A program made the translations under genes and the position numbers. A stretch of 64,000 bases of DNA from a virus: IMG/VR virus record IMGVR_UViG_3300018080_005856, positions 86,488 through 150,487 of that record. One strand, given 5' to 3'. The notes below the pieces were generated by a model. It ran no database searches, was not told the origin of the DNA, and saw only the letters and a program-made list of their open reading frames with translations. Below, one piece after another: positions 16,157 through 35,200 of this stretch (the stretch's first letter is position 1; every line of letters starts with the position of its first letter).

Positions 16157-16750
16157 ATGAGCGAAGAGAATAAGCAAGACAAGGATCATGAAACTGTGAA
16201 CGGGGACGTAGAAGAAACCACAGTAGATCATGAGGAAGATCAGAGAAACCAGGATGAAGGGTTCTTCGATAATGTGAGTGATACGGTAAAGGACGAGTTC
16301 GAGAAAGTAGAGATACTTATGAAAAGAGCTCGTGAGGAGCGTGATCGTGTGAGAGATGAGGTAAAGAAGAAGTATCCAGGAGTAAGAATGTTCTCAGTAG
16401 TTACACCATACTCTGGTGTTTACATCGTTCGCGCACAGGATGTAGCCGATATAAAAGCATCCACTAAGGCAGTGGACAAATATATCGATGACGAGATAGT
16501 GAAAGAGGGGGGCAGGGAGAAACTGTCAGCCATGCCAGAATCGGAAAGGAACATTATAGTGCAGCGTATAAATGCTGAAGCTGCTGATATAAGCAACGAT
16601 ATATCCTTATCCAGGTGCGTTCTCTATCCGTATGACTTTGGTAAAATGGTAGAAACGGGAGAAGGTATACCGGCCGGAGTATATCCCCTGCTCATAGAGA
16701 AAATATATGAGGTATCCGGGTGGCAGGATGTGGACGTAGAGGAGATATAA
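16157..16750 (+). CDS. Tail assembly chaperone-like protein
   Basis: Contains SRCVLYP...IPAGVYPLLIEKIYEVSGW and sits just upstream of the tape-measure-like giants. SD AGGAGG. Confidence 0.55.
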   Translation: MSEENKQDKDHETVNGDVEETTVDHEEDQRNQDEGFFDNVSDTVKDEFEKVEILMKRAREERDRVRDEVKKKYPGVRMFSVVTPYSGVYIVRAQDVADIKASTKAVDKYIDDEIVKEGGREKLSAMPESERNIIVQRINAEAADISNDISLSRCVLYPYDFGKMVETGEGIPAGVYPLLIEKIYEVSGWQDVDVEEI

Positions 16751-16759
16751 AGGTCCTCG

Positions 16760-17551
16760 ATGAAACAGTATGGAATTAGAATAAAGGGGAAGAAGGGTAA
16801 TGTAGAAACTCATGTTGATGTGTTCCATCTTCCTCTATCTTATATGGACTGGGCTGTGTACTCGGGAAGTGATGAGCTATTTGACCATGCCACAATAAGA
16901 TATCTCCTTTATCAATACGTAATAAGAGTGGTTGATAATGGGGTAGAGGTACCAACAGATTCTCTCTTGAAGATGGAAGTTTCTGTCATAGAGAAAGTAA
17001 TCACCAACCTAATAGAGACCTCAATATTCCACAAGCCCGAATCATTCTATGAACTCATAGAGTCATTGGATAAGAAATCAAAGACATTATCTGGCTGCTA
17101 TGATCTGTTCATTTTCCAACAACTAGGAGTTGAATCATACCTTCAGCTCATCGAGAGAGATGCATATACCCGGGCTCAAATTATAATGATGATTGAGAAA
17201 AGCACGGGTATAAATGTAAAAGCAAGGTTCGATGAAGCTGTTTCCAAGGGTATACCTCTGGATCTTATTTCTACCCCAGAACAATATAGAAAGGGAATGA
17301 AGCAAAGGGGATTCTCCAAACCAATGGAGAGAGCTAGGAAATCCCCTCTAGATGCCCATAGGGATGCTTTTGGAGATGCACAAAGGCCACCCAGAGAAGA
17401 CATGCCATCTAATATAGACTCGATGCTTCAGGAATCTCGTGACTCTCTTGCAGCAGCACTACAGGCTGGGAAGAGAAAACCATCAGGTAAGAAGCCTACA
17501 TTCGATTGGACAAAAGACCAAGGGGCATTCGACCAGTTCGACTCGGAGTGA
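16760..17551 (+). CDS. Second tail assembly chaperone-like protein
   Basis: Lies between the first chaperone and the tape-measure-like gene, and is helical and charged. Confidence 0.45.
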   Translation: MKQYGIRIKGKKGNVETHVDVFHLPLSYMDWAVYSGSDELFDHATIRYLLYQYVIRVVDNGVEVPTDSLLKMEVSVIEKVITNLIETSIFHKPESFYELIESLDKKSKTLSGCYDLFIFQQLGVESYLQLIERDAYTRAQIIMMIEKSTGINVKARFDEAVSKGIPLDLISTPEQYRKGMKQRGFSKPMERARKSPLDAHRDAFGDAQRPPREDMPSNIDSMLQESRDSLAAALQAGKRKPSGKKPTFDWTKDQGAFDQFDSE

Positions 17552-17559
17552 GGTAAACT

Positions 17560-20500
17560 ATGATAGGTGGCCTCCTTAAAATAGCTGGTCAAATGGCAGC
17601 ATGGGGAGTATCCGTATCTGCCACAGCTGGTGTTGCAAAATGGATGGGTTCACGGTTATCTCAGGCAGCTACCAACTATGCTGTAAGGGGTGCCCAGAGT
17701 ATACGGGTCAGAGATAGGATAACTAGAGGTCTTCTCACCCATCTTACCGGTAGAGCAAATCCAAAATCTCAAGTAGAGCGTGCAAGAACGCTCATGTCTG
17801 CATCCAGAGCTAGAGCTCACAGCAGTTACAGCCAGGCTATTAGAAGATTCAACGAGAAAGGCCGGAGGAATGCCGGGTTCTTCATGAGAACTATGAGGGA
17901 TGAAGCTCTGGCTCTTCCTATGAACTACACAATGTATCGTCTTGAAAGACACAAGGCTGTAAGTCCAGAGGAACGAGAGCAGACCGAATCATTCCGAAAG
18001 TGGTATATGGGAACTCCAATGGCAATGAGTGTTGGCATTGGCTTTGCTATGGAAAGAATGCGCCATGGGAGAACAATGCGGGCAGCCACAGCTAAGCTTG
18101 CCAAGAAGCTTGGTTCATCTAGGGTTAAATCTGCCCTGAGACCTTTTGCTACACATGGTGGATCAAGCTCAAAGGCCTTATATAGTGCTGGCAAAACCTA
18201 CCAGAACGTAACTTCAAGATTGGGAAGAATGGCTAGGGCCAAATTCGTGGCTACAGAAGGAAGGCCCATGCTTGGTATGCTAGGTACAATGGGGCCAGTA
18301 GCTCTTACAAAGAAGATATGGGATGCATATAAGAGTGAGGTAGTTCACGTAGCTGGAGGAGATAGGTCTGTATTTCTTGATAGAGTTATGCGAGATCATG
18401 AAAGTCTTCTAGAGACCACTAAGCAAATGTCCCTAAGAAGAGTAGCAGATGGTGAATTCTCAAACAAAGAAGCGTCAGCGTATGTTAAAACTATGACTTC
18501 CAAGATATCTGATCTTACCCGTATGAGGGTAGACAAATTCAGAGATAAGATAGTTTCCAAGAACAGGTTTACACAGTTCTGGAATAACATGGTCAAGAGT
18601 CTTAAAGATCCGTCAGCTCAGTTAAACCCAGAGATGATGCAGGTAGATGGTAAGTGGTCAAAGGTACTCAACCGCAATGAGACCATACCAACCGGAAGAT
18701 ACATACTGGGCGGTAAGATGAACGAGAATGGTCTTATCACTGGTGGGACCACAATAGACTTTGGTGCACTCTCCATAGCTCGTGTCAAAGATATGGCACT
18801 CGGAATGGCCACCAAAGGTACAATGGGTAAGTTTCTACATCTATTTGGTGCTCGAGATGTGTTGGCTGCTAAAGATAGTGAACACGCTATGGTAGGTGCC
18901 GTTACAATGACCGGAAGTAACCCTCTATACTTTCCTATGGCATACTTTGATGAAAGCGGGGAATATTCTGCCAAAGATATTATGGCACAAATGATGGGAT
19001 TCCATGATTACGGCTCAGCTCAGAAAGCCGATAGAACAAAGATAGAGGACTTCCTTAATACCCGTCTTGACATATATCAAAGAGAATATGGTATAAAAGA
19101 TGACAGACAAATATTAGAGAAGGCATTTCTGGCATCAGCTAGGCATGGTGAGCTAAAGATGAAAGCAGACGATATGCTGATTCATCAGCCTGGAGGAAGA
19201 CTTCAGATACTCACTATGCAAAAGAAGGATCAAATGTGGCAACCTCTTTCCGTGGATGTCGGAGGATTCAATGGTCAGTTGCTAGAGTTCATGAAGTTCA
19301 CAAGGGAACATGATAGCGTTCCTGCTAAGCTAATACGCAGTTTCACCGGTTATGAGAAAGCATCATACACTGCTGCTGCTGGTGGAGTCGTTGACGTAAC
19401 CCATGGAATAGGCATGCTTGGTAAAATAGTAGATGCTGCATCTATGGAAGAACAACAGGGGTTGATGTACAAACTAAAGAACCTGTTAGACTTTGGATAT
19501 GCTCAAGATAGGTCGATATTTACCAGGGTAAAATCCATATTTACCAAACATACTGACCCGAGGTACCCAACTACATTCTTCTCCAAGGACTTTGTAGGAT
19601 CTCCTGAATGGAAAGATAAGCTTATCAGAGGAGAGCGAAGTAGAGAGGACCTAGTAGAATTCTTCAGGACCCAGGCTGACAATGCTATGAATGAGTATTG
19701 GCAAGGTGCTGTAAGGAGATACGGGGGGTCAGATGAAGTTGTGCAAGTGTTCAAAGAGCTGAGCCAAAAACATGCAGACAAAGGCATGGGTGGATTTGCT
19801 GATTACATGATTACTAAGAATACAAGTGTAGGCGAAGCCAAAAGAACCGTAGATGATCTGTTAGAAGCCATCAAGGCATTTCCAGATATAGACTCTGACC
19901 CAGGAGAGCTCAGAAGGCACTTTATGTTCAGAGATATAGAAGATCTCAAAGCGATAAGAAGAATGTTTACCGCCCCCACTGGTAAAACAGTTCTGGACGT
20001 AATGGGTCATATATCATCCAGAAGAAGAACAGTATTCGGGGGAAGATGGACAGCACCTAACAAGCTCGATGAATATAATGCTCTAGTTCTCAGATTGGAA
20101 ACTGGGATATATCAAAGTGGAAGACTACCCGTAGTTCCGGAAACCAGTAAGATGATAGGAGTCATGAGAGACTTTGGTGATTTGCCGGCACCATTGACAA
20201 ATGCAGAAAGGTCAGCATGGTATGCCGGTTCTCATTTGGCCAGGGAGTATCACAACCTGGCTTCTATAGTAAATGAAGCAACTGAGGGAGCCCTATCTGA
20301 TAATTCCAAGGGAAGAATAATGGGAATATTAGACAGCGTTGCCAATGTGAATGGAGCAACCTATAAGGACATCACAAGATACTATAGGAAACGGAAAAGG
20401 TTCGCACCGTGGGCCATGTGGGATTATGACCACAGAATGAAGTGGGAAGATTCGCACAATGTCAAGACGGGAATATACCTTGTACCTAAGAAAACTACAC

Positions 20501-23500
20501 ACGGGTTTGTCAGCAAGGAAACTGTTCCTCTTGGTAGCGGTGAGGAACTGAGTATAGCTCGAGGAGTAATGGATGCATCAAACATATCAGTAATGAGTAT
20601 GTTTCATGCATTTAACCGGGCTGCTTCTGAAATGTTGGGAATAGGTTTCGATGAAACAAATCTGAGTACCCCATTCCAGTACTTTGAGAAGATGTTGTTT
20701 CAGAGAGTAGTTCCATTTACAGCCATGTATATGGGCTATAGCGTGCTAGACCGACTGGCAGATAGATACATGGACGGCACCCCTTTCGGTGAGGGGCTTA
20801 CAACATTTGGAGCTAATGTTCTAGCTGGAGCAAGAGTAGGCGCGCAAGGGTTCCTAGATGTTACCGGGGCTACTGGTATAGCGTCATATATGGAAGATTT
20901 GATGCCAGGTATTGTCACTTCTCCTATGGGTGGTCTGACGAGAGGTATTGCTCCTCTGGGTGCTGGAATGTCTATAGGGATGAGAATGGCTGGACCTAGA
21001 GGTGCCCTGACTGGTGGCATCGTAGGATCTGCCGTTAGCATGCTAGTAGGTGGCGGGCCATTAGGTGCCTTTGGAATGTGGGACATAAGTAAGACTAGAT
21101 CAGAACTGGTTCAAGAGCTCCTGGGAGAGAAACAGGTTCCTGTAAGAAAGGGAAGATGGTGGGAGTTATCATCGAGCCCCTTCGAGGGAACAAGAATACA
21201 ATATTACAGGCCACATATATATTCTCTCATGAGATCTGATTACAAGGAAACTCCCGGGTTTAAGGACTCGCTGTTTACTGAAATGGTAGGTAATATAGCA
21301 CCAGACTGGTACGCTATGAAGAACTACTATTCTAGGCCATACCCAGTAACGGCAGGGCTTTTCTCAAACCTTCCTGTATTTGGTAACATGTTTGATCTCA
21401 TGGCATCTACTACCAGTCTAGGCCGCCTAGCCTCTTTAAGAGGCATACCTATGCATCGCGGAGAAGAATCTCCTCTATACATGCAGAGGATGGGGGAGGA
21501 AACAGGGTTTAGTTCAGAAACAGTGGCAAGAGACTTCGTATCCAGGGAGGGATATTTCTCTCAAACAGATGGTTCAGCCGGCACATCTGTAGGAGCTATG
21601 ATGAGTTCTTATACTGGACAAAGTCCAGTTCAGGCAGGAACTACTGCTAATTATACTGCAGCACCAATGATGAGGTCCTCCTTTGAATGGGGACTTGGTG
21701 AATCTGTCGAGAATGTAAAGGATATAGTAGGTATCAGAGGTTTTATGCTAGGCTCTATGTTCGAAAACATGACAGGGCGCAAGAGTTTATTCGATTATGC
21801 TCCGCAGCTTGCATCTCCAGTTGAGATACCCGGCATACAGCGTGAATATTGGGACTACGAGCTTGGAGGCATCCTTGGGATGTCTGAGATCATACGTAGG
21901 TATATAAACCCAAAGCGCGGGAATATGGAAATATACAACCCTATAAGAAATACTATGCCGCCATGGCTCCCGGGGCATGATTATTATATAGATTTCCAGC
22001 ACGGGGATCCATATACTATGGTTCCCATGGGAGAGGCTCGTCTTCCTGGCGCCTCATACGAAACTCTACATGATGTTGATCTTACTATGCCTATAACCTC
22101 AGAAATCATGGGAGAGAGTGCTGAAACTCAGGCATCATATTATCTGGGCATACCAAACTATATGGCAGAAAGAAACCGCGCTATGGAGGTTGCTAAGGAG
22201 ATTGCTATAAGCTATAGGGCAGATGCACAGAAATACGGTGAACTCTTATCAGAAGAGAGAACTGTATACAATGTAAACTTTGATGCATCAGCTACTGTAG
22301 ACGCAATAGTGTCCCAAAAGAGGTCAGGAAGTTATATACCGGTAAAAGTAGTACCAAAGGGATTTGCCGGCCAATCTAATCTGAACGCCTTTCTCGTTAT
22401 GGCCGATGTTGATAAGGGTATCCTAGTGGAGGTAGACCCTAGAAGTGGAGGTATATCTGAAAGAATAGTCAAGAAAGACGTAAAGAGGTTCACACGGGAT
22501 ATAAAGGCGGCTACCGCCGCCAGGACCCTAGCCTATAACCAAGTAACCTCTTTAGAGGACGAAAACAAAGCATTCAACCTAGCTAACGCATACTCATGGT
22601 TTGACAGATATAGAATTCTGGCCGACGTGGCTCATTATTCAAGAGAATACAGAGAAGCCAAAAGTATTGTGCGCAAACAGATAAATGCAGGCAGGTTACC
22701 AGTTGATAAGATCTCTGAATTCGAGATGATAGAAGAACAGGTAGAGAATAAGAAGAAGGCATTCGAGTTCTCTGAATATAGATTTAAAGATCTAGGGGAG
22801 GGGCTGACTCCGTACACTAAGGCCCGGGACAGGTTCGTTGAAGACGAATATAATACTCTAGAACAGAATGTAGGTGCTCTATGGGAAAGAGCTTCACACA
22901 TAAGAAATCCACTGCAGAGTAAGTTCTATCATAACCTGGATGCATTAGAGGAATATGAAAGGAATGCAATATATGGTAAAACACTAAAGATGTGGCAAAA
23001 CCCTATAGAAGACTGGGTAAAGTCATACTATCTTAGTGCAGTTGGTGAGGATAACCCGGTGCAGGCCTCTGTTAACTGGGCCACTGCTGGATATCTTTTG
23101 GGAGGGGGCCCTCTAGCAGCACTAGGAGCAAGTGCCGGTGGCGCCTTCACAAGCATAATGAATCTTGGAGATGAGGCTTACATACCCGAGAGGACAATGA
23201 AAGTCCGGGATATTGTATCCCAAGCTGATGCAGTAAAGTACTCAAAGTACATGAAACTGTATCAGGAGACTGGGGATGAGCAGTACTTATCGAAAGCCAA
23301 TCGTACTCTAACAGGAAAGTCATTGGAGGGAGAAGCTCTTACAGCCAGGAAGATAGGCAGATCATTAGGCCGCCCAGAGAAAGACTATGTTGAAGATATC
23401 ATAAACAATGTTACCAGATCAAACATATCCCGGGTAACACAGTTACTACCTACTCCAGCAGTTGCATCAGTTTACCATACAATGGGAGAAGTAGGTTATG

Positions 23501-23877
23501 CTGAAGATATGATGAGACAATTCAGCCGTGCCCAGAAGGAAAGATATGTTCCGAGTATGGATTCTCCCATATATTCAGCTGATGTTCCTATAGAGGCGCC
23601 AATAATCTCTTCGTTCGAGCAGGAGGGTCTTAATGCTCATGATGCAGGATATGGCTGGTATAGCCAGATGGCTCAGATAGAGAGACTAAAATCTATGGGT
23701 GTATATGGTGGGGAAGGTATATATAATGAATTCGGTAGTCGTGTTTCAGTTAAAAGCTTTGAGAGATCTCTCAGTACGACTGAGTCTATTAGGAAATTAC
23801 TGTCTAGATTCAGTACAAATGTACAAATAACTCAGGACGGTTCCGATAGAGTAGAAGTTGAGATAATAACGAGGTAG
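17560..23877 (+). CDS. Tape-measure-like / ejection protein with glycine-zipper hydrophobic segments
   Basis: 2105 aa with no cysteine, directly after the chaperones. Gly-rich hydrophobic stretches (GIAPLGAGMSIG...GALTGGIVGSAVSMLVGGG; WATAGYLLGGGPLAALGASAGG) and the motif PVRKGRWWELSSSPFEG. Confidence 0.6.
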   Translation: MIGGLLKIAGQMAAWGVSVSATAGVAKWMGSRLSQAATNYAVRGAQSIRVRDRITRGLLTHLTGRANPKSQVERARTLMSASRARAHSSYSQAIRRFNEKGRRNAGFFMRTMRDEALALPMNYTMYRLERHKAVSPEEREQTESFRKWYMGTPMAMSVGIGFAMERMRHGRTMRAATAKLAKKLGSSRVKSALRPFATHGGSSSKALYSAGKTYQNVTSRLGRMARAKFVATEGRPMLGMLGTMGPVALTKKIWDAYKSEVVHVAGGDRSVFLDRVMRDHESLLETTKQMSLRRVADGEFSNKEASAYVKTMTSKISDLTRMRVDKFRDKIVSKNRFTQFWNNMVKSLKDPSAQLNPEMMQVDGKWSKVLNRNETIPTGRYILGGKMNENGLITGGTTIDFGALSIARVKDMALGMATKGTMGKFLHLFGARDVLAAKDSEHAMVGAVTMTGSNPLYFPMAYFDESGEYSAKDIMAQMMGFHDYGSAQKADRTKIEDFLNTRLDIYQREYGIKDDRQILEKAFLASARHGELKMKADDMLIHQPGGRLQILTMQKKDQMWQPLSVDVGGFNGQLLEFMKFTREHDSVPAKLIRSFTGYEKASYTAAAGGVVDVTHGIGMLGKIVDAASMEEQQGLMYKLKNLLDFGYAQDRSIFTRVKSIFTKHTDPRYPTTFFSKDFVGSPEWKDKLIRGERSREDLVEFFRTQADNAMNEYWQGAVRRYGGSDEVVQVFKELSQKHADKGMGGFADYMITKNTSVGEAKRTVDDLLEAIKAFPDIDSDPGELRRHFMFRDIEDLKAIRRMFTAPTGKTVLDVMGHISSRRRTVFGGRWTAPNKLDEYNALVLRLETGIYQSGRLPVVPETSKMIGVMRDFGDLPAPLTNAERSAWYAGSHLAREYHNLASIVNEATEGALSDNSKGRIMGILDSVANVNGATYKDITRYYRKRKRFAPWAMWDYDHRMKWEDSHNVKTGIYLVPKKTTHGFVSKETVPLGSGEELSIARGVMDASNISVMSMFHAFNRAASEMLGIGFDETNLSTPFQYFEKMLFQRVVPFTAMYMGYSVLDRLADRYMDGTPFGEGLTTFGANVLAGARVGAQGFLDVTGATGIASYMEDLMPGIVTSPMGGLTRGIAPLGAGMSIGMRMAGPRGALTGGIVGSAVSMLVGGGPLGAFGMWDISKTRSELVQELLGEKQVPVRKGRWWELSSSPFEGTRIQYYRPHIYSLMRSDYKETPGFKDSLFTEMVGNIAPDWYAMKNYYSRPYPVTAGLFSNLPVFGNMFDLMASTTSLGRLASLRGIPMHRGEESPLYMQRMGEETGFSSETVARDFVSREGYFSQTDGSAGTSVGAMMSSYTGQSPVQAGTTANYTAAPMMRSSFEWGLGESVENVKDIVGIRGFMLGSMFENMTGRKSLFDYAPQLASPVEIPGIQREYWDYELGGILGMSEIIRRYINPKRGNMEIYNPIRNTMPPWLPGHDYYIDFQHGDPYTMVPMGEARLPGASYETLHDVDLTMPITSEIMGESAETQASYYLGIPNYMAERNRAMEVAKEIAISYRADAQKYGELLSEERTVYNVNFDASATVDAIVSQKRSGSYIPVKVVPKGFAGQSNLNAFLVMADVDKGILVEVDPRSGGISERIVKKDVKRFTRDIKAATAARTLAYNQVTSLEDENKAFNLANAYSWFDRYRILADVAHYSREYREAKSIVRKQINAGRLPVDKISEFEMIEEQVENKKKAFEFSEYRFKDLGEGLTPYTKARDRFVEDEYNTLEQNVGALWERASHIRNPLQSKFYHNLDALEEYERNAIYGKTLKMWQNPIEDWVKSYYLSAVGEDNPVQASVNWATAGYLLGGGPLAALGASAGGAFTSIMNLGDEAYIPERTMKVRDIVSQADAVKYSKYMKLYQETGDEQYLSKANRTLTGKSLEGEALTARKIGRSLGRPEKDYVEDIINNVTRSNISRVTQLLPTPAVASVYHTMGEVGYAEDMMRQFSRAQKERYVPSMDSPIYSADVPIEAPIISSFEQEGLNAHDAGYGWYSQMAQIERLKSMGVYGGEGIYNEFGSRVSVKSFERSLSTTESIRKLLSRFSTNVQITQDGSDRVEVEIITR

Positions 23878-23879
23878 TA

Positions 23880-26800
23880 ATGGCATTTACAGACCCCAGA
23901 AGGGCAATAGCGAAGGCTGAACAGGGAGAAATGTCTGAATTCAGTACCATAAAGAACCTTGGTCTGATAGGAATGATATCTGTTACTGGTATACGGCTTA
24001 GTAATTACATGGAACGTCAAAGAGCGGCCATAGAGGAAAACGTCCTAAGAGCAAAAACAGAGATAGAAAGAGCTGCTCTTATCTTTACTGACGATACTAA
24101 TATGAAACTGAATACCAAGGAAGGTACAGTAAGTCGAGTAGAGTACATAGATACCGGTGAAGGTTATGACCCTATGGCTGAGTGGCAAGCGTTAAAGGAG
24201 AAAGGACTAAGTGAACCAGCTCCATTCACCGACACGATGATGCCAGCTGAGATGTCAGATGAATTATATGAACAGGCAAAGTTGGTAGATGATCTCAATA
24301 TGAGACTTGCCGGCAGGGAACCAATGACTGCCAGTGAAGCAAGTCAATCTATGGCAAGATATAGGAGACTGAGTGATAGACTCCAAAAGGAGTACCCTGG
24401 ATTACAAGCTTCCGTAGAAAGTGTAGAAGGTTTACGAATAACAAAGGTTACAGAAACTGGTACAGACTTTCTGATGCATGTACATGATGGTGTACGTCAC
24501 GAGGTCATAAACCTACCTAAGTGGTCATCTGGTATATTGTCATGGGGTGGTAATATGTATGCTACCAAACAACCAGCCCAGATAACGGGAAATATGATAC
24601 AGGTGGGCGGCACAATAGAGAATGTTATCAAGAGAGTAGCGGAAAGATTAAGAAAAGGAACATTTGGAAGAGTAGGAAAAGCCAGAGAACTAAGGGATAT
24701 AATAAGAAACCAACTGCACGTAAACATAGGCAAACTAGTAGATGGCCATAGTATAAAGCATTTACTGACCAAGGAGGTCAGCTTTGAATCTCTGGCAGCA
24801 AAGTTTGGTGGAAAACCATCAGAAGCAGGTTCCCAAGCTAGGGAATGGGTAGCTTCTCTAACAGATAGGCTCAGTGTATATGCTAAAACAGGGCCGGGCC
24901 TCAGAAGACTGGACAAGATATTTCCAGGTAATATACCTACAATAAGTCTTACATCATCATCAGAGGCTTCTTTCGTAAAAGGCTTTAACATGAGAACCAG
25001 GCTGCCATACGGCGTTGGACCATTGGATACACGAGCCAAAGCATCAACCACAAGGGCTAACTACATAAAGGGAAAATATATGTTTGACGCTCGTATGAGT
25101 CCAACAAAGGTTGCCTCCAAACTTGGGCCTCTTCCCATGGATGCTGCAGATCTACTATCTAAGGAAATGGTGGAAGGGCTCCCTGGTGGATTTATGAACA
25201 TGGGAGTATATCTTGGAAAGGGGGAGATAGAAAAGTTAGGACCTGGTGGTGGTGTATATTTGCTAAGGAACCTGATGGATCCTACTGGACAAATGTCAGA
25301 AGACTTGCTGAATGCCAGAGAGTTCGATGGTGTAAGAGAACGTGTGCATAGAATTCCTATAACTAGCAGACAGGAAGGGATGCAAATCCTGAGGGATATG
25401 AAAGCTATGATAGGAGATAAGAAAGAGCTCATTCTCAGAAAAGGTTCTCAGATAGGCCCGATAGGCTCACCGAGAGCCGTAGTAATGGATGAAAGACAGA
25501 AAGTTACCTATACTAATATCATAGAAGATGAATTGATAATAAGGACAGAAGCAGACAGACCTCTTGGACTCATGACAAAAGCCACCCAGAGTAAAGTTAT
25601 GATTCAGAGAGTAGAAATGGCCGGAACATCTTCTGAACTATTTTCCTCGCTACATCCGGAATCTACGCTAATAGGAAAGATGGTGCAACAGACAAAAGCA
25701 GCACAGCTTGGTGCAGAAATGCTCGTGAACATGGATGCCCTAATGAAATATCAAGGGGGTGGCCTAGGATGGGGAATTATCCAAAAGACCATGTCCGACC
25801 TCATAAACCTAAAGAAAGCTGAGATAGCTCGAATACATAAGGAGAATGCCTCTAAGATATTACCAACAGAGATGAAGAAATTAGAGGGGGAGCTTAAGGA
25901 CCTCCTGAGAACATTCTTAGGGGCTGATATAGATAACGTTGTACATAGTGTAGGTATAGTCCAGGATGCCAATAGACCATATATCATTCTAAAGGGTGCC
26001 GATCAGATGCCATCAGGGGTAGCAGCAACTATGGCAGACCCCGCATTCTACAAACTCATCGATATAGAAGACGCATTCTTTAAAGCATCAGCAGGGGATT
26101 GGAGCAAACTAGAAGAGTATGAAAGAAGAGTTTCCACACATGCAAAGAATGTAGGATTACCACAGTATCGCATGATCACTACTGTGAGTAATGTAGAACG
26201 AGAAATGGCAAGCATGGTGGAAAAGTCAGAACAGTTCATGCCCACTATAGTCAGAACCAGATTATCTAAGGGAGGAAAAGTAGGTCATAAAATGATATGG
26301 GCAATGGCCCAAGTCCCATGGATGACCCACCAGCAGAATGCCTATGAGTATGCTAGATTTGGTGGGCTAGTACGTTCCAAGGGTGGATACAGTGGGGGGT
26401 TTAGATCAACACTTGATCACTACGAAATAGCCAAAACGGCTGGTTGGCATCAATATGCCAGGTATCTGGATATGCTTATGGATCATGATATGGACTATAT
26501 CAGAGATAAAATGTATACAGCTGAAGCCATGCTACTAGGTCCCAAAGCGTCATTACAGAAGCCACCCATAGGGACTATAAACGTTAGTGGGATGACAGTC
26601 ATAAAGCAAGCCCAGCTGAACCAAACCGGTATAAACAAGCGTCTTGCCGAGTACAATTTCCATGAAGGAGCAATGAAATATGCCGGAATATGGAGAGTAC
26701 ACCATAGCAATTTATCTGGACTGCAGGGAGCTATAGATGATCCAGAAGTGAAACATCTAATAGATGATGGAATTATCCAGTTTGATGACCTGAGGACTAC

Positions 26801-29800
26801 CGCGCACGCTGCGTCAGGGCGCCACTCAGTAGATGTTACTGACTCAGCACTTGTACATGATATAGTAGACCTGATGAAAGGAGCAAAACCAGATGAAGCT
26901 GTGTTCTTAGAGTTACCGGAAACAATAGTTATGAACGGAAAGGAGGTAAGATACATACCTATAGATAAGTTCGATGTAGCTGATACCTTCGAACTAGAAG
27001 CACGAAGAGGACCAGATGGTACCACCCTGGATGATTATCTGCATAAGAAGTTTACAACCGGTTCTGGGTTTCACAGTAACCGAATGTACATAATGAAAGA
27101 GACAGCACGGATATCCGAAGAGATGAGAATGTTGAAGAGAAATAGGAAGGGTACCTCTCATTTGAAAGAAGAAATGAAAATAGCTGTATCCAGGTATTAT
27201 GCTGAGTTGGATAGACTTCTCAATATGAAGAACAGCCCGGCTCTAAAAGCAATGTTCTCATATAATATGCCTTTCAGTATGAGAGGGGTAATAAACAGTT
27301 TATCAAAACATGACGCTGGCAAACTCGTAAAGGGAGTAGATGGTATACCGGTAGATCAAATGTATATACATGCTGACTATGCTACGCAACTTATATCAGG
27401 TGGAAAGATAAAGAGCATGTCACATGCCAGGAACTTGGCTAGAAGCACCGAGGCTATATTAAAAGTCCAGGAACTTCTAAAAGGAGTTGATACTTCGTTC
27501 TTCGAAACATCATCAGTAGATGATATGGCAGAACTAACAGTCAAACTGGGTAAGAGCTTGGGGAGAATGACAAGAGAAACCAAGGCAACTATGGATCTTC
27601 AAACTGTCAAGGAACTAATAGGCCTGGGCTATGCTGCCAGAAAGCGGGGATCTACTATGCTAAGGTCAATGTTGGAGTCTAAGGATGGACGCTCAAGAAT
27701 GGGAAGGCTGGCAAATGAACTCAAGAACTCTTCATTGATGAAAGGTGAACTAGACGGCATGGCTGCAGACGATCTTAAAAGAGTAAGGGCCATGAGTAAA
27801 TACACTCTAGAAACAGTTCAGGCTATTCAAGAGGGTACCTTGGAAGTTGGGGGAGTCATGGTACGGGCGCCTGAGCTTTCCCAGATGTCCATGAACTATT
27901 TCAAAATGAAGGTCCTTGGAGCTACAGAGTTTTCCCAAAAGACTGTAAACGATAAGTTGGTCAAGGAAATACTAAGCCGCATGAAGGATGATAAGGGAAA
28001 GGGAGGCATGTATATAGCCAAAGAGGCGGCAAAGCAGATAAGCGGTGACCAGGATATGGACCCTAGCGGGTTTGTTGTTACTACCCTAGATGTGCTTGAA
28101 AACCAATCAAAGAAGGTTGCTCAGCTATCTATATTAAAGGAGGCAAAGCTTCTAGGAGTAAAGGGTAGTGATATACAGAAAGCACTGTATCATGACGTCA
28201 CAGAAGAGACTCTAGTAAATCTTACCATGTCAAGATTATTCCAAACAGCTACAGACGACGAGGGAAAGATCATACTACAAAGACCAGCTAGTATATCCGC
28301 TATCACACAAATGGATGCCATGGGAGACCTTCTAAAGGAAGCCAGAGTAGATATAAAGGGAATAGAACAGTACGTAGGAGAATCGCTGTTGGGATTCTAT
28401 CCGGATCCGGCTGACCTAAAGGCACTAGGTCTTACTCATGTGCAGGTAAGAGACAATGTTGTTGATAAGATAATGAAGGAGGCCAGAAAGTATCTGGGAA
28501 ACAACGCAAGGCTGGAAAACCTTTCTGTTATAGTAGGAACCAGGGAGTTACCTAATAAGTCCATAAGAAAGACTGTAGAGCAGCCGAGTATAGCTGTAAA
28601 AGATCCCCAGAAACTTATATCTGAGACGCCCGAAGCAGCTCCAATAGTTGCCAAGCAGGCCATTACTGCTGATGAACTTTATGTTCGTGATGCAATATCA
28701 AAAGTAGACGCGTCAGAGTTCAAGGCTTATCAGGAAAGAGTTATAAGAGAAGAAGCCCCAAGGTTCCAAATAATAAAGGAGCAGGTACCGACTGGATACA
28801 ACGCTGCAAAGGCCTTATACACTCTGAACTACAGTTACGTAACAAATGAAGCAGACAAGGCATTCCTTACATGGATGGCAGATAAAGTACTAGCACAGAA
28901 TGTAATTTCCTCCAAGCATGGTACTCCCCAGGTTCTCGTAGACATGACTAAGACTCTTAGGAAACTTGGCAGCATACATAACGAAGTGATGGAAGCTGAT
29001 ATAACAAAGCTTGTTACGCAGAATGCGTATCTTACTGTGAGCCAAGCTGAGAAAGAGGACATGGCAAGATTAGGGTTCAAAACGGAAGATGTGAATATGG
29101 ATCTTTACCAGGACTATATTGACAAGAAGTTGGTCAATCTTACTGAGTTGAATAACATACATGAGACAGTTACCAATGATATGATAACAAACGCCTCTAC
29201 TCTCCGTAGCAGCGAGATGGATATAGAGAAAGTGTTCCGTTCAACTGTAGATCTTAAAGTGAAGAACAGTTCTCTTCTCAAGAATTATCAAATGCTGGAG
29301 ATGGATTTCACTCCTCTATTAGTATCTAATGAATTAAGAAGAGCTAAGGAAGCTAAAGAGAACGTAGCCAAGTTTAGAAAGAAGATGACAATGGCTAGTG
29401 TTCTGGGAGAACCTGAAGATGTGATAAGACAGAGATATATTACTATGATAGGAGCTATGAGAGAATACTCTTTTAAGAACAGGGGAATAAGTGTATTTGA
29501 TGACCCAGCAGTTAGCACGTTCAGACATATGGAGGGAGGGGAAAGATCTGCCCTGGAGCTCATAAAACGATTCGTAAGCAGAGAATCAACAAGAACAAAT
29601 AGCGCTGACGGGATTGTCACAGTAAGAGCTCAAAATACCATAGAGGGAAGGCTCATTAAACTAGGAGCAGTTATCACAGGACGCAACGATATAAACCGTA
29701 TGATAATAGGCGGAGATACGTTATCTGACCGCCAAATGAGATTAAATTACCTCCACAGCCGAGAATTACGGCAACTCAGAAGAAGCTATGCTGAAAGAAT

Positions 29801-30245
29801 AGTAGAAGAGAGCAGTGTATTCCGTACTGGATCTATGTTTAATCTGATAGAGAAGAAAATAGTGCAGAGTACTGACACAGTAGCCCAGGATATGGCTCTA
29901 AAAAGAGTAGGTAAACTGAAAGGGGCCAGTTTGCTTGTAGGTCTTTTAGCTGGTACAATAATAGGGCAGTCAATAAATCAGATTGCACATGGATATCCTG
30001 TTCCAGATCTAGGAGGAATAAGAGAAGGTCTTGGGGGAGAATACTTTGAGAATAGATCGGGTTACCTCGGAAGAGAAATAGAGGCAACCATGGGGCACAG
30101 ACCAACCAAGATAACCTCCAACAGAATATACGAGAATGTGGTTAATCGAGAACTTGGTTCTATAGGCGACGCTGAGGTGGCTGCCGGGTCCACGGTGGGA
30201 GTACGGAACCTTTCACCATATCTCAAAGGTACTATAATAAGATGA
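23880..30245 (+). CDS. Putative single-chain two-barrel (beta+beta'-like) virion RNA polymerase
   Basis: Collinear motifs: beta-like MTKATQSKVMI, AEMLVNMD and GGFRSTLDHYE; beta'-like SMRGVI...DQMYIH, VRAPELS and GDQDMD (DxDxD); bridge-helix-like IKEQVPTGYNAAKAL; trigger-loop-like AQNVISSKHG. No cysteines. Confidence 0.65.
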   Translation: MAFTDPRRAIAKAEQGEMSEFSTIKNLGLIGMISVTGIRLSNYMERQRAAIEENVLRAKTEIERAALIFTDDTNMKLNTKEGTVSRVEYIDTGEGYDPMAEWQALKEKGLSEPAPFTDTMMPAEMSDELYEQAKLVDDLNMRLAGREPMTASEASQSMARYRRLSDRLQKEYPGLQASVESVEGLRITKVTETGTDFLMHVHDGVRHEVINLPKWSSGILSWGGNMYATKQPAQITGNMIQVGGTIENVIKRVAERLRKGTFGRVGKARELRDIIRNQLHVNIGKLVDGHSIKHLLTKEVSFESLAAKFGGKPSEAGSQAREWVASLTDRLSVYAKTGPGLRRLDKIFPGNIPTISLTSSSEASFVKGFNMRTRLPYGVGPLDTRAKASTTRANYIKGKYMFDARMSPTKVASKLGPLPMDAADLLSKEMVEGLPGGFMNMGVYLGKGEIEKLGPGGGVYLLRNLMDPTGQMSEDLLNAREFDGVRERVHRIPITSRQEGMQILRDMKAMIGDKKELILRKGSQIGPIGSPRAVVMDERQKVTYTNIIEDELIIRTEADRPLGLMTKATQSKVMIQRVEMAGTSSELFSSLHPESTLIGKMVQQTKAAQLGAEMLVNMDALMKYQGGGLGWGIIQKTMSDLINLKKAEIARIHKENASKILPTEMKKLEGELKDLLRTFLGADIDNVVHSVGIVQDANRPYIILKGADQMPSGVAATMADPAFYKLIDIEDAFFKASAGDWSKLEEYERRVSTHAKNVGLPQYRMITTVSNVEREMASMVEKSEQFMPTIVRTRLSKGGKVGHKMIWAMAQVPWMTHQQNAYEYARFGGLVRSKGGYSGGFRSTLDHYEIAKTAGWHQYARYLDMLMDHDMDYIRDKMYTAEAMLLGPKASLQKPPIGTINVSGMTVIKQAQLNQTGINKRLAEYNFHEGAMKYAGIWRVHHSNLSGLQGAIDDPEVKHLIDDGIIQFDDLRTTAHAASGRHSVDVTDSALVHDIVDLMKGAKPDEAVFLELPETIVMNGKEVRYIPIDKFDVADTFELEARRGPDGTTLDDYLHKKFTTGSGFHSNRMYIMKETARISEEMRMLKRNRKGTSHLKEEMKIAVSRYYAELDRLLNMKNSPALKAMFSYNMPFSMRGVINSLSKHDAGKLVKGVDGIPVDQMYIHADYATQLISGGKIKSMSHARNLARSTEAILKVQELLKGVDTSFFETSSVDDMAELTVKLGKSLGRMTRETKATMDLQTVKELIGLGYAARKRGSTMLRSMLESKDGRSRMGRLANELKNSSLMKGELDGMAADDLKRVRAMSKYTLETVQAIQEGTLEVGGVMVRAPELSQMSMNYFKMKVLGATEFSQKTVNDKLVKEILSRMKDDKGKGGMYIAKEAAKQISGDQDMDPSGFVVTTLDVLENQSKKVAQLSILKEAKLLGVKGSDIQKALYHDVTEETLVNLTMSRLFQTATDDEGKIILQRPASISAITQMDAMGDLLKEARVDIKGIEQYVGESLLGFYPDPADLKALGLTHVQVRDNVVDKIMKEARKYLGNNARLENLSVIVGTRELPNKSIRKTVEQPSIAVKDPQKLISETPEAAPIVAKQAITADELYVRDAISKVDASEFKAYQERVIREEAPRFQIIKEQVPTGYNAAKALYTLNYSYVTNEADKAFLTWMADKVLAQNVISSKHGTPQVLVDMTKTLRKLGSIHNEVMEADITKLVTQNAYLTVSQAEKEDMARLGFKTEDVNMDLYQDYIDKKLVNLTELNNIHETVTNDMITNASTLRSSEMDIEKVFRSTVDLKVKNSSLLKNYQMLEMDFTPLLVSNELRRAKEAKENVAKFRKKMTMASVLGEPEDVIRQRYITMIGAMREYSFKNRGISVFDDPAVSTFRHMEGGERSALELIKRFVSRESTRTNSADGIVTVRAQNTIEGRLIKLGAVITGRNDINRMIIGGDTLSDRQMRLNYLHSRELRQLRRSYAERIVEESSVFRTGSMFNLIEKKIVQSTDTVAQDMALKRVGKLKGASLLVGLLAGTIIGQSINQIAHGYPVPDLGGIREGLGGEYFENRSGYLGREIEATMGHRPTKITSNRIYENVVNRELGSIGDAEVAAGSTVGVRNLSPYLKGTIIR

Positions 30246-30394
30246 AGATAACATTGTATGTACGACCTGATGCCAATGTATCATCATATGCCAGGTCCAT
30301 AAAGTCACTCATAGAAGAAGAAACCGGGCAGTTGTGTATAGTGAAGGTTTCTGAAAGTAAATTTAAGCCTGTGAAGGTAAAAGAAGAGAGTTAA
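30242..30394 (+). CDS. Small 50-aa protein (not in ORF track)
   Basis: Translates as MKITLYVRPDANVSSYARSIKSLIEEETGQLCIVKVSESKFKPVKVKEES*. It has an ATGA overlap upstream and a TAATG overlap downstream. Confidence 0.7.
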   Translation: MKITLYVRPDANVSSYARSIKSLIEEETGQLCIVKVSESKFKPVKVKEES

Positions 30395-32280
30395 TGAGTA
30401 CTTCCTCGGATAACATAAGAAGGATGGCTGCCGGAGAACCTATAGCTAGGATAGGCGCTATATGGTACGGTGATGTAAGCGGGACAACTATTCCTAACAT
30501 ATACTATTTCGGGAATAAGAATATGCAGAGTGTTATGCCACTGCGGGCAGAGTCAGCTATATCGTTCTCAACTTCTAGTCCTCCTGTAGATATGTTACAG
30601 ATGGAAATAGTGATCAACTACAGCAAGTTCGTCACACATCTCCAGCGCCTTATGGCACAGATACAGATATCTCCAGTGCTACCAGTACAAAACCCGGTTG
30701 TTGCTGCAATGACACAGCCTGTACAGACCAACAAAGAGGTGTACGTTGCCTATGGTTTCATGAATGTCAATGATAAAGATATAAAAGACTCCTCAAATCG
30801 CAGGGCACTTATGAACATGTATGCTACTGTGCCTGTCAATATGAAAATAGACAACGCAGTTATAGAAACTATTCCTGGCAATCCCAGAGATGTAAGAGTA
30901 ATCCTGAGGCTTACCAGGACATTAACAGCTACTGTATATGGTGATAAAACACAGTATATCAGAACTATGGAAGGGGCTGTAAATCAGAACAAGTACATAG
31001 AGAAACTTCTATCAGAAAGTGGCGATAATGAGCAAATAGCTGCTATGGCTACTATGATGGGAGTGAATACCCCAGCAATACAGGATGCTATAGATGCTAT
31101 GTCTACTCCAATATCGTTAGGAGAGGACATAGGTATAACTATAGGAGCAGAAGTGAATGAAGTACTTGCACCAGACCTATACCGGGTTACCACAGATGAT
31201 GGTAATAGTGCTCTTATTATGCCATATGGTATTGAATGTTTTAACAGCAGAGAAAAGATAAGACTATTTATGGATGTAAGTCACTATGATGATTACCCAG
31301 TAAAAGGAGCAGAGAAGAACAGTGTAGAGGCTTTAGGATACTTTATAGGGAGTATGTTTGGACTTACCATTCCCAATGAAAGGTTGAGAATAACTGGACC
31401 TGATTTCTCAGGGGCCAATAACAGAATAACCATGCATACTATACAGAAGGGGCCAATAGGTCTTCTCGATAATCCCAATGCAAGCAATGAAGATGTTTCT
31501 ATACATTATTGCATCATAACTCATGATCAAATGGGAGATATAGGTAATACCTTATTATCGTTGGGAGAAGCTTTCGACTCTCCATTATATGATAGTGAGA
31601 TAGTTCCAGAAGGATACACAACAGCTAGGATTGCAGCAATAAAGGCTGGGGAAGAGACCGTATCAAAGCAAGAAGCTGGAGACACCTATAGTACGTATTC
31701 ATGTGCCAAGGTATTGACTAGGAATGCCAAGGCAGAAATACCATGGACACAAAGAAGAAACATGAGGAACAAGATTTCTACTGGGGTAGACCCATCTGTA
31801 GGATTTATATCAAGTCCATATACAGCTACGGTGGAATCTATAACTAATGGCGATACTATTGTTGTCAAGAAGTCAGACAATTCTTCAGTAACTCTTGGAT
31901 TGTTTGGTATAGATGCGCCGGAAACTGGACAACCTGGAGGAAATGAGGCAACAGCCTGTCTTTCTAGCTTGCTTCCAATAGGTAAAACTGTAACAATTCA
32001 ACATGTTCCATCTGGTCCAGCCGGGGGTGAAGTAGATATATTTTCCAGATATTCATCAATAGTGAAATCAGGAAGACTTAATATAAATACAGAGATGCTG
32101 AAAAGGGGTATGGCGTGGGCATATCCTAACAAACGTTTTGATGTATTGAATGAAGAATACGAAAACCTTATGGTTGCTGCAAGAGATAGAAAGATAGGTA
32201 TATGGGCATTGACAGAGAAGAAAGCAAAATGGACTCCTGCCGAATACCGTAGATACATGCAGTCCAAGGGAAGGATATAA
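30394..32280 (+). CDS. Tail/baseplate protein with C-terminal thermonuclease (SNase-like) domain(s)
   Basis: Contains ATVESITNGDTIVV...LFGIDAPETGQPGGNEA...DIFSR...INTEMLKRGMAWAY...AARDRKIGIW. Confidence 0.75.
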   Translation: MSTSSDNIRRMAAGEPIARIGAIWYGDVSGTTIPNIYYFGNKNMQSVMPLRAESAISFSTSSPPVDMLQMEIVINYSKFVTHLQRLMAQIQISPVLPVQNPVVAAMTQPVQTNKEVYVAYGFMNVNDKDIKDSSNRRALMNMYATVPVNMKIDNAVIETIPGNPRDVRVILRLTRTLTATVYGDKTQYIRTMEGAVNQNKYIEKLLSESGDNEQIAAMATMMGVNTPAIQDAIDAMSTPISLGEDIGITIGAEVNEVLAPDLYRVTTDDGNSALIMPYGIECFNSREKIRLFMDVSHYDDYPVKGAEKNSVEALGYFIGSMFGLTIPNERLRITGPDFSGANNRITMHTIQKGPIGLLDNPNASNEDVSIHYCIITHDQMGDIGNTLLSLGEAFDSPLYDSEIVPEGYTTARIAAIKAGEETVSKQEAGDTYSTYSCAKVLTRNAKAEIPWTQRRNMRNKISTGVDPSVGFISSPYTATVESITNGDTIVVKKSDNSSVTLGLFGIDAPETGQPGGNEATACLSSLLPIGKTVTIQHVPSGPAGGEVDIFSRYSSIVKSGRLNINTEMLKRGMAWAYPNKRFDVLNEEYENLMVAARDRKIGIWALTEKKAKWTPAEYRRYMQSKGRI

Positions 32281-35200
32281 TGGCAAATAAGGTACATATA
32301 ACTGACGAAGATAGAAAAGCAGCTGCCGACGTTTTCTCTGCATATACCGGTGAACTGGATGAAGATCAATATATAGATCCAGGTACTATACCAGTCACTG
32401 ATGATATGAGTGAGTGCCAACCATTCATAGACCTTGTTAAACAGCTTACTGGAGAATCCACTACCGACATAGCTGATCTTCCGTTTGATAAGTACACACC
32501 ATTTGACCAAACACGTTTGGATCATCAGTTCAGGATAACAACAGTACATAAGGATCTTACAGCTATTGTACCAGAGGTAGACAGGTTCAAGGAATTCTAC
32601 AGGATAGCTGAGCAATTTACTAATGAGAGTTCTCTGATAGTATCAGCAGCAATGGACTCCAATATCAAAGATATCACATGTATGCCTCCCTCTTATGTGT
32701 TTTCATATGCAGCAAAGAAGATCAGAGAAGTCATTACTATGCTGCAGAAGGAGAACATACCAGGGTTATCTGACCTGAAGGACTATGCCGGCAGATTTGA
32801 TCGGCTAGCCTCAGACGCGAAACATATGCAGGCACCATATCCTGACACATCTACTCCTGCGTTTGATCCAGATGATTATGCTATCAGAATAGTTGCAGAT
32901 AGTGTTACGTTCCCGCTTGTACCACGACTTAACGAAACGGAACCAACTGGGGACTTTGGATTTATGACTCCTGAGAGACCCTCACATAGAGGACTAGATC
33001 TTAAAGTCTACACCGAGCAGGCAGTAAGCAATACGGGGAAAATATATTATACTTCTTCACACCCTGTTGTTGCAATTGCAGAAGGCAAGGTAATACATTG
33101 TACCTCTTCTAACAATCTAGCTAAACCATGTGTACGATTCGATACTGATACTAATCATGGAGAAGATGTAGACGGGAAGATATTCGAGGGTAGAGACGGT
33201 GGGAACATCGTAATCATATGGCATCCTGATCTTGGTAAAATGTCAGCATACATGCACCTTAGTGAAATATCTGTAAAGAAAGGTAACAGTGTATTAGCCG
33301 GTGATGTAATAGGAGTAGCAGGAAATACTGGTGGATCTACCGGACCGCATCTCCATTTCGAGATGAGAGATCCTTCCCTAGCCAAGGGAGCGGCAGCAGA
33401 TATCTCATCGTGGAGAAAAGGAGTACCAATAAACCCATGGCCATACATTGGTGGAGGATATAATGGGGATCCCACAAACTCTGAACCAGCCATAAAGCTT
33501 GAAGCAACTCAGGGAAACCTGAAGGCTGAGGATACAGTAGAAGACTTCAGAGAATATCTCAATTCTTTAACAATGTCACCGGCGGAGAACCCCGAAGATC
33601 AATCAAATGTACTATATGCAATTCACAGACAGATAATGGCTAGGGTAACTTCTTCCGTTCACTCTGTGTATGTTAATGATATCAGCGGGAAAGCTGAACA
33701 AGTGACAATAAACTGGATGCCGGGAACAAGCAAAGCTATTCCTATAGAGGGGCAAAGTGCACCGGTTATACAATCACTTGGTGGAAGAAACGTGCAGGTT
33801 TCTATTTCGTTAAAAGGCATTAGTCCTGTAGAAGTGGCCAAGATAGCTCTTATGTTTAAGGTTCCCAGTACTGACGAAACAATAGCAGGTATGCTGACGC
33901 TAGCAAGAAGTGGCATGTTCGGAGAAACATCCATCAGAAACAGTTACCTGCAAAGATGGTACAGAACTGATCAAATAGAGAGCATGTTACGTGGCATAAG
34001 TGGTTCCACCCAAAAAGTACATCTAGATGAACCAGTAATCGTAGATAATGAATACCTTAACTCTATGGGGCTTAAAACCTTTCATCCTATAAGTATGGAA
34101 GTGAAAACAGTTCCCCAAGCATCAGAAGCATATGACATACTTCTAACGCTATCATATATGAACCTCAGAAATAGAAGCTTAGAATCTTTGAAGAAAAGCA
34201 GACATGGTATTCAGGCACCAGTTTTACCTGTAACGGCTAGAGTTTTTCCAGAAAAGGCAACGGGAGATTCAGGGTTCGGACTAGAATCCGATTATCAAGC
34301 ATATGGGATACTGAGTAGATTGTCCATTGTAAACTGTCTTGCTGAAATATTACCTCTGTATATCATGTCCAGAGTGTATAGGTTGTATAAAACTATGTCA
34401 GAATATACTCCAGGATCAGTAATAGATCTAGACGGACTAGATATCATGACAAAGATCCTAGCACCAACCGGCATAGATACGGCCATAGAGAAAGTATTCT
34501 CCACAGTAAGAGATTACGATACGGATGTTCCCTCCTTCTCCAGTGCTATACTCGATGCATCTATGGAACTTGCCAACCTGGGGACTGTTGCAGCATTGTC
34601 ACGTTACACTGAAAAGACAATAGAAGTAGCAAAACAGGGTACAGGCAGCAATAAGTTCTCAAAGATTGTTGCCGCAACACTTGGTGCTGTTACTACGTTA
34701 AACAGTGTTCTGAAATACGCTTTTGGTCCTGTTGGCACCCCAGAAGTAAACAGAGGAGCGGAGACAAGAACACTTTATATGAACATTCCCAGCCTTGCTC
34801 CTATAATGATATGGTCATTGTTAGCGGAATTTATAGACAGATTATCAGCCGGGAAGGAGAATGAGTTCTTTTCAGAAATATCCAATGATGTCATAGATAT
34901 GTTGAATGATTCCTATGCTGAGCCCAATGTCAGAACACTCAGAATTGGTGGGAGCGATGAAGTATTCGTAGAAGTAAAGGGAGCTATAGGACAAGAAGCA
35001 GCTGGTGGAGAATACAAACCTCTGTTTATCGGAGAGATAAAACTCTCTATGATAATGGGAGGAGAACACGATGATAGTGAACGCAATACTCTATTCGGAA
35101 GCATAGATGTCAGTGAAGGTCTTGGTCAAATATGGTTCGGATCCGAAGATGCTAAAGCTTTAAGGAAGAAGCTTGTGGATGAAATCGAAACCATGGCCAG

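Follow-up and report, generated by a model that had tools for sequence, protein, structure and literature searches.

The final 64 kb of the 150,487-bp viral record IMGVR_UViG_3300018080_005856 (IMG/VR class linear, about 79% complete), referred to below as the window, encode a giant protein, P0001 (g2121), which is probably a divergent single-chain two-barrel RNA polymerase (RNAP) that would be packaged in the virion, most likely in or at the tail lumen, injected into the host and used to transcribe the first phage genes. The single-chain two-barrel reading had been proposed in an initial annotation of this DNA, and it is supported by RNAPs at the top of four fold searches, by the agreement of sequence and structural registers, and by an invariant triad of aspartates.

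The P0001 gene (23880–30245, + strand) was confirmed as a real open reading frame (ORF) of 2121 aa. A GAGG ribosome-binding site lies upstream of the start, which is located 2 nt past the stop codon of the preceding 2105-aa gene (g2105), and the protein contains no cysteines. The coordinates, the length and the position of D1390, D1392 and D1394 at 28047–28061 were given correctly in the initial annotation, and all motifs quoted there were found at the indicated places. No match to P0001 was found in Pfam and PHROGs or by tblastn against 50,697 phage records. A PDB sequence search with a 4-sequence profile of the family gave nothing relevant, a feature-based query of the ESM Atlas yielded no usable match, and a search of IMG/VR for related loci returned no relatives.

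Protein family and conservation of the aspartate loop

A word-index search provided the first homologues of P0001, three full-length proteins with 35–45% identity. A profile of residues 520–1700 searched against 1.84 billion cluster representatives matched 29 proteins, 23 of them with E < 1e-30 and nearly all 2000–2300 aa long; the relatives found by this search amount to about 25 metagenomic proteins of 2000–2300 aa. The alignment used for further analysis included 24 full-length homologues from the profile and word-index searches, 23 of which were within the same size range. Their identity to P0001 is 16–46%, and only 25 columns are invariant. These columns include D1390, D1392 and D1394, as well as K572, P1331, K1633, Q1673, K1679 and G1681. 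K567 is present in 23 of the 24 homologues, H1680 is conserved in at least 90%, and K1117, P1637 and Y1640 are near-invariant.

Conservation of the DxDxD motif among homologues, suggested by the initial annotation as a check, was thus observed at every identity level covered. The consensus of the loop is [GR]D[F/L/I/V/M/N]DxD, commonly RDFDxD, and several family members carry DFDGD (P0018 and P0027), DIDGD or DMDGD, which can be read as essentially the universal NADFDGD. The DQDMD sequence, which the initial annotation described as a non-canonical active site, is therefore atypical within a family whose catalytic-type loop is conserved, and not a chance D.D.D. One D.D.D per 2121 residues is unremarkable alone (about 0.5 expected), and the signal was taken as real because it is conserved across the family, not because of its mere presence. 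R1329, previously considered an active-site arginine, is not conserved and is replaced by Gly in many family members. Strong conservation of the catalytic residues speaks against a partly degenerate enzyme, as suggested in the initial annotation; the GG thought there to replace the beta "ED" residues falls outside the residues covered by the model described below.

Pfam detected an RNAP family in none of the 24 homologues. A back-translated QNxISSKHGTP pattern was found in one IMG/VR locus and six metagenome loci, only four of which encode family members, two of these being new partial sequences. When the family alignment was used for a second word-index search, candidates were too numerous and only two proteins were obtained. 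The 901-aa protein P0030 was considered as a short form and rejected, being a C-terminal fragment of a P0001 family member.

Sequence register against the large RNAP subunits

The family was compared by hhalign with alignments of RpoC and the RpoB C-terminus, each comprising 28 proteobacterial loci and Escherichia coli (29 sequences). One reversed and three column-shuffled controls were used for RpoC. The best RpoC match paired P0001 residues 1096–1189 with beta' 296–403, including HQCGLP (score 38.2), and the second paired residues 1325–1400 with beta' 421–470, covering NRAPTLH and NADFDGD (34.9), while the controls scored 30.0, 19.1, 20.6 and 17.7. In this register, K1117 corresponds to K334, S1133 to S350, R1135 to R352, and D1390/D1392/D1394 to D460/D462/D464 of beta'. 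The same register was obtained in the structural alignment described below, which places P0001 1126–1128 (residues 607–609 in model numbering) on beta' 343–345. No other argument for the polymerase nature of P0001 is as strong as this agreement between the profile and structural registers, which were derived independently of each other.

The best match to the RpoB C-terminus was the lysine loop, where K567/K572 fall on GDK...NKG (K1065/K1073); this loop is also the best match of the whole P0001 to the beta motif GDKxxxRHGNKG. When sub-regions were compared with RpoB and RpoC, reversed controls were not outscored by any of four blocks (VLNP, GGQRFGEME, bridge helix and trigger loop). The earlier analogies of AEMLVNMD and SGGFRSTLDHYE to beta motifs thus gained no profile-profile support. 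The bridge-helix and trigger-loop analogies also lacked it, but both elements are included in the ranges of the structural alignments. Comparisons of the family with single sequences (gp66 of phage phi14:2, g2105, an 814-aa ORF of the same genome, ME3_35/36/37 of Acinetobacter phage ME3, and gp145/146 of Bacillus phage 0305phi8-36) were not significant.

Predicted structure

An AlphaFold2 (AF2) model of residues 520–1700 was built from 24 sequences and no templates. It has a mean predicted local distance difference test score (pLDDT) of 72.7 and a predicted template modelling score of 0.59; with four sequences only, pLDDT was 38.5 and the model was unusable. The best 50 Foldseek matches in the PDB were all RNAP largest subunits or the non-virion RNAP of phage AR9 (E-values of 6e-3 to 5e-2, probabilities up to 1.0). 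RDR2 and QDE-1, which are RNA-dependent or dual-activity enzymes, were the best fold matches; African swine fever virus RNAP ranked 16th (7.5) and phi14:2 gp66 28th (6.7), the latter aligned over 302 residues with its chain at 1100–1651. A designed double-psi beta-barrel (DPBB; 7dww_A) and the barrels of CDC48 N-domains matched model residues ~609–959.

In the ESM Atlas, 10 of 10 rows were RNAP clusters, the first being a viral single-chain cluster with Rpb2_6 (PF00562) and Rpb1_2 (PF00623) that covers model residues 188–1043. In all, four independent fold searches with this model had only two-barrel RNAPs at the top. In a further search, of BFVD, the model matched best a protein with no name (E 3.7e-7) and one annotated as a "minor tail protein" (4.3e-6); a protein of Acinetobacter phage ME3 came next, with a segment of 802 aa (1.4e-3), ahead of beta' subunits of jumbo phages.

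The structural alignment to beta' spans from about residue 14–28 to the trigger loop. Alignments extend through beta' ~927–934 and 1141–1152, to residue 1140 of QDE-1 and to residue 1651 of gp66, and these ranges take in the bridge helices and trigger loops of all three proteins; model residues 1152–1169 are placed on E. coli beta' ~927–934. The structural check proposed in the initial annotation thus recovered a beta'-like module with a metal-binding barrel (DPBB-A) and RNAPs as the top matches, but the beta-type barrel was not aligned to a beta chain.

Domain organization of P0001

The following elements were distinguished (window coordinates, strand, description):
23880..25436, +, N-terminal region, residues 1–519; conserved in the family, outside the model
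25437..26519, +, candidate beta-like region (second barrel, DPBB-B), residues 520–880; large helical insertion
25578..25595, +, K567...K572 loop between two predicted strands; K572 invariant, K567 in 23/24
26526..27254, +, predicted clamp-core/connector region, residues 883–1125; aligns with the beta' N-terminus and the QDE-1/gp66 connector
27255..28079, +, predicted DPBB-A, metal-binding double-psi beta-barrel, residues 1126–1400; indicated by the model, 7dww_A, CDC48 N domains and hhalign
27864..27881, +, RAPELS motif; aligns with beta' RAPTLH; P1331 invariant, R1329 variable
28047..28061, +, DQDMD predicted catalytic loop (D1390, D1392, D1394); invariant in 24 homologues, equivalent to beta' D460/D462/D464
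28668..28838, +, long helix in the bridge-helix position, residues 1597–1653; invariant K1633, near-invariant P1637 and Y1640
28893..28928, +, AQNVISSKHGTP motif in the trigger-loop position; Q1673, K1679 and G1681 invariant, H1680 near-invariant
29925..30083, +, C-terminal hydrophobic stretch (residues 2016–2036, LLVGLLAGTIIGQ) and conserved block, residues 2016–2068

The beta'-like half, from the clamp core and the metal-binding barrel to the bridge helix and the trigger loop, is well supported, although the presence of the bridge helix and trigger loop C-terminal to the barrel is indicated at the fold level only. The region 883–1125 holds a beta'-like helix and K1117. DPBB-A has a helical insertion at ~1180–1318, and its PFSMRG motif aligns with beta' DYSGRS. 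The trigger-type helix-loop-helix occupies residues 1657–1697 and contains the conserved QNxISSKHG (AQNxISSKHGTP in the family form).

Residues ~520–880 likely supply the second barrel with K567/K572. In the model, this region consists of a strand, the lysine loop, a strand, the helical insertion and more strands, up to GGFR (839–842), near which the QDE-1 and RDR2 structural alignments begin.

The C-terminal hydrophobic stretch is single and moderate, under the hydropathy cut-off of the scan; one could guess at a membrane or assembly anchor. The GYxVPDL...GLGGEYYE block that follows it, outside the polymerase core, is the best-conserved block of the family.

Genomic context and phage lineage

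Terminase and the major capsid protein are nearest to those of Acinetobacter phage ME3, Bacillus phage 0305phi8-36 and Moorella phage MTATph1 (21%–28% identity). Phmmer searches identified the tail tube as a homologue of 0305phi8-36 gp140 (E 2e-28), the tube paralogue as gp141, g1042 as gp142, g2105 as gp145 (E 5e-48) and ME3_35 (E 1e-25), and, weakly, the sheath as gp139 (E 4.6e-09). By these homologies, the source phage is a contractile-tailed member of the 0305phi8-36/ME3 myovirus lineage; the contractile tail had been predicted in the initial annotation.

The genes around P0001 are all on the + strand and encode, in order, proteins of 1042, 1966, 197, 263, 2105, 2121 (P0001), 50, 628, 2760, 346, 324 and 382 aa. 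The main neighbours are:
16157..17551, +, two genes (197 and 263 aa) in the tail-chaperone position; position as in 0305phi8-36/ME3, no family match
17560..23877, +, g2105, upstream partner gene, 2105 aa, no cysteines; homologous to 0305phi8-36 gp145 and ME3_35
30242..30394, +, 50-aa ORF; start overlaps the P0001 stop (ATGA), stop overlaps the next start
30394..32280, +, 628-aa protein with a C-terminal staphylococcal nuclease (SNase) domain (Pfam E 1e-09); 630-aa counterpart in a relative
32280..40562, +, g2760, 2760 aa, M23 peptidase domain, baseplate-hub position

Baseplate wedge genes come after g2760, and the 382-aa product is a baseplate wedge protein. No Pfam or PHROG features were found for the 1042-, 1966-, 197-, 263-, 2105-, 50-, 346- and 324-aa products. 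The 50-aa ORF is translationally coupled to both the P0001 and SNase genes, and ORFs of 51 and 58 aa occur there in two relatives. The SNase-domain protein may be another ejected enzyme. The 1966-aa product of g1966 (10244–16144, +), encoded upstream of the chaperone-position genes, contains 40 cysteines, shows weak matches to a zinc-finger region and a CBM_5_12 module, and has a 1960-aa counterpart in a relative.

The initial annotation assigned P0001 to the tape-measure locus, and the gene does occupy the gp146/ME3_36 slot, in the order tube, tube paralogue, chaperone-position genes, gp145 homologue, P0001 and hub. This order matches 0305phi8-36 gp140–gp147 and ME3_30–37. In 0305phi8-36, the chaperones gp143/144 are followed by gp145, gp146 (a "hypothetical tape measure protein") and the hub gp147, and the GenBank record states that gp145 and gp146 were identified in virions by mass spectrometry. 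The arrangement is also retained in a relative (1960-166-268-2110-[2125]-51-630(SNase)-2585, where the bracketed protein is the P0001 counterpart). Pfam and PHROG searches found no tape-measure domain in P0001, and it is g2105, not P0001, that follows the chaperone-position genes. No homology between P0001 and gp146 was detected by hhalign or phmmer.

ME3_36 of Acinetobacter phage vB_AbaM_ME3 (24173–28984 of its locus), a 1603-aa "hypothetical protein" that lacks cysteines, is a probable distant relative of P0001, weak at the sequence level. It contains SREPAQG...GGDHDQD at residue 1217, and its LKAALDSY...GDNS block can be aligned with the beta'-like helix of the P0001 family; the 802-aa ME3 segment found in BFVD fits its second half by length.

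Cysteines are absent from g2105, P0001, ME3_35, ME3_36, gp145 and gp146 and number 0–1 in each of the 24 family members and two in phi14:2 gp66, as compared with 40 in g1966 and 17 in g2760. Such cysteine avoidance would fit ejected proteins that cross the envelope unfolded.

An 814-aa ORF is located 35 kb left of the window (genome positions 49014–51458, − strand). It has six homologues with 34%–65% identity, and the family shares invariant R496-x-P498 and D536-C-D538-D539. It might be a second, non-virion polymerase, by analogy with phage P23-45. Pfam, PHROG, PDB sequence, tblastn and hhalign searches found no link of this ORF to polymerases.

Proposed mechanism and alternative explanations

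In the proposed mechanism, residues ~883–1700 of P0001 would form a beta'-like module whose D1390-x-D1392-x-D1394 loop in a double-psi barrel holds the catalytic Mg2+; the long bridge-type helix and the trigger-loop-type motif QNxISSKHG would come after this barrel, and residues ~520–880 would provide the second barrel with K567 and K572. The protein would be built into the virion together with the gp145-type partner, most likely in or at the tail lumen. Assembly into the virion is inferred from the location of the gene in a tail-lumen cassette and from the near absence of cysteines in the family. Upon infection, P0001 would leave through the tail on contraction, in an extended state, and in the cell it would refold and transcribe the earliest genes independently of the host RNAP. 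We consider it probable that P0001 is carried in the virion and injected to start early transcription.

A more far-reaching version of this scenario is put forward tentatively. P0001 could represent the third independent lineage of injected single-chain RNAPs and the first in contractile tails, resembling a cellular beta-beta' fusion in motif and fold more than QDE-1 or the crAss-like phage enzymes. It could pass through the tail lumen with the gp145-type partner as a cysteine-free extended chain and act in a P23-45-like cascade with the 814-aa candidate, which would make the phage independent of the host RNAP.

Several points weigh against the assignment of P0001 to injected RNAPs. No sequence method gives conventional significance for the similarity of the family to any RNAP, and hhalign probabilities against RNAP profiles are below 5%. 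The structural support is one AF2 model from a shallow 24-sequence alignment, the motif may have biased AF2 toward an RNAP fold, and pLDDT is below 50 at the K567/K572 loop. The beta-like barrel yielded no alignment to a beta/Rpb2 chain, and for the lysines that the initial annotation likened to those of beta, conservation is nearly complete but the match to RpoB scored only 25.8 versus 23.3 or less in the controls, a slight margin. D.D.D is absent from gp145 and gp146 of 0305phi8-36; therefore, the slot is not always occupied by a polymerase, and the enzyme is not universal in the lineage. The tail-lumen location rests on gene order, and an enzyme of ~240 kDa, if folded, would have to pass through a myovirus tail tube.

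Among the alternatives, P0001 could be an active two-barrel polymerase that is not injected and functions late inside the cell, as a late transcriptase or as a primase-like or RNA-templated enzyme, being merely encoded among tail genes. This is unlikely. It would agree with RDR2 and QDE-1 as the best fold matches and with the downstream SNase-domain protein, which hints at nucleic-acid processing. However, the P0001 gene is closely coupled to that of the gp145 homologue, and gp145 of 0305phi8-36 is on record as a virion protein; the P0001 gene also lies between the tube-side genes and the hub. Cysteine avoidance is common to gp66, gp145, gp146 and ME3_35, and the ~940 residues outside the model (1–519 and 1701–2121), together with the conserved hydrophobic C-terminus, better suit a packaged or ejected protein.

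The pattern of conservation bears on another explanation, quite unlikely in our view, that P0001 has an RNAP-derived fold exapted as a structural tail-lumen or tape-measure-type scaffold without polymerase activity. The Asp triad, K572 and the trigger-type Q/K/H/G residues are among the 25 invariant columns at identities down to 16%, which indicates selection on catalysis rather than on a scaffold; in addition, several family members have the canonical DFDGD, and the gene directly after the chaperone-position genes is g2105, not P0001. The scaffold reading is favoured by the position of P0001 in the slot of a hypothetical tape measure protein, its size, lack of cysteines and C-terminal hydrophobic segment, all like those of tail-lumen proteins, as well as the odd DQDMD loop, the variable R1329 and an unproven beta-like barrel.

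That the RNAP likeness results from chance and model bias, P0001 being an unrelated giant virion protein, is very improbable, because the top matches in four fold libraries are all two-barrel RNAPs, the alignments from sequence and from structure coincide residue by residue, the catalytic residues that they align are those that do not vary in the family, and the hhalign controls scored lower.

Implications

Injected RNAPs are found in N4-like podoviruses, where they have a T7-type fold, in PhiKZ-like jumbo phages, where a multisubunit enzyme is carried in the capsid, in crAss-like phages, and in one group of Thermus siphoviruses, as a fusion with the tape measure. If P0001 is indeed an injected polymerase, a separate giant two-barrel enzyme in a myovirus tail cassette would mean that this strategy has a wider distribution than assumed so far and can operate with contractile tails. 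Such an enzyme would also add a very deep branch with unusually beta'-like motifs to the two-barrel polymerase tree and make it more pressing to explain how a tail can store a 240-kDa enzyme and let it through. The presence of the probable distant relative ME3_36 in the cultured phage vB_AbaM_ME3 opens the idea to direct bench work, and giant phage proteins annotated as "minor tail" or "hypothetical" are worth screening for conserved DxDxD.

Comparison with known systems

Relative to RpoB/RpoC and their PhiKZ/AR9 derivatives, P0001 shows colinear beta' matches aligning K334, S350, R352 and D460/462/464. Its elements are arranged as in a beta-beta' fusion, with the beta-like lysine loop ahead of the beta' module, and the best Atlas match is a one-chain viral Rpb2_6 + Rpb1_2 protein. 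The differences include low identity (~10%–13%), the absence of Pfam RNAP domains, a ~140-residue helical insertion in the predicted DPBB-A, and large N- and C-terminal extensions. Alpha, omega or sigma partner subunits did not turn up, although no search was aimed at them. QDE-1, RDR2 and YonO-type enzymes are much smaller, cytoplasmic and not virion-associated, and the aligned part is ~220–260 residues. For 0305phi8-36, only a YonO-like enzyme was listed by Iyer et al. (PMC7824862), and our literature search revealed no report of a polymerase at this position in phages of the 0305phi8-36/ME3 type.

The closest precedents are virion RNAPs that transcribe the first phage genes, gp66 of phi14:2 (10.1101/2020.03.07.982082) and gp96 of P23-45 (PMC10770324). 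Like the predicted enzyme P0001, gp96 (PMC10770324) is a two-barrel RNAP whose gene lies in the tape-measure region of a phage with a long tail, and delivery through the tail is proposed for both. However, gp96 is a 5002-aa fusion with a tape measure that has peptidase and transmembrane domains, and the tail of its phage is non-contractile, whereas P0001 is a separate 2121-aa protein without a peptidase domain; the M23 peptidase is on g2760, and the P0001 gene is preceded by a separate gp145-type giant.

Both P0001 and phi14:2 gp66 are single chains of ~2100–2200 aa with DxDxD at similar positions (1390 and 1361, respectively), a non-Gly residue at loop position 4 and few cysteines (none and two), and both genes are located beside other genes of giant virion proteins. 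In contrast to these similarities, no sequence match between them was obtained by tblastn or PDB search, and the hhalign probability was 0.1%. Loop position 4 is I/V in the gp66 orthologues, while it is M in P0001 and variable in its family. The P0001 motifs (GK...PFSxxG, RAPELS, QNxISSKHG) are closer to cellular beta', and in the fold comparisons its model obtained better scores with beta', RDR2 and QDE-1 than with gp66. The phi14:2 phage is a crAss-like podovirus, whereas P0001 belongs to a contractile-tailed phage of the 0305phi8-36 type. The N4 virion RNA polymerase of Schitoviridae differs in fold, which is T7-like (palm) and unrelated, and in its location in a podovirus capsid, but as a giant ejected polymerase that transcribes early genes it would be a functional analogue of P0001.

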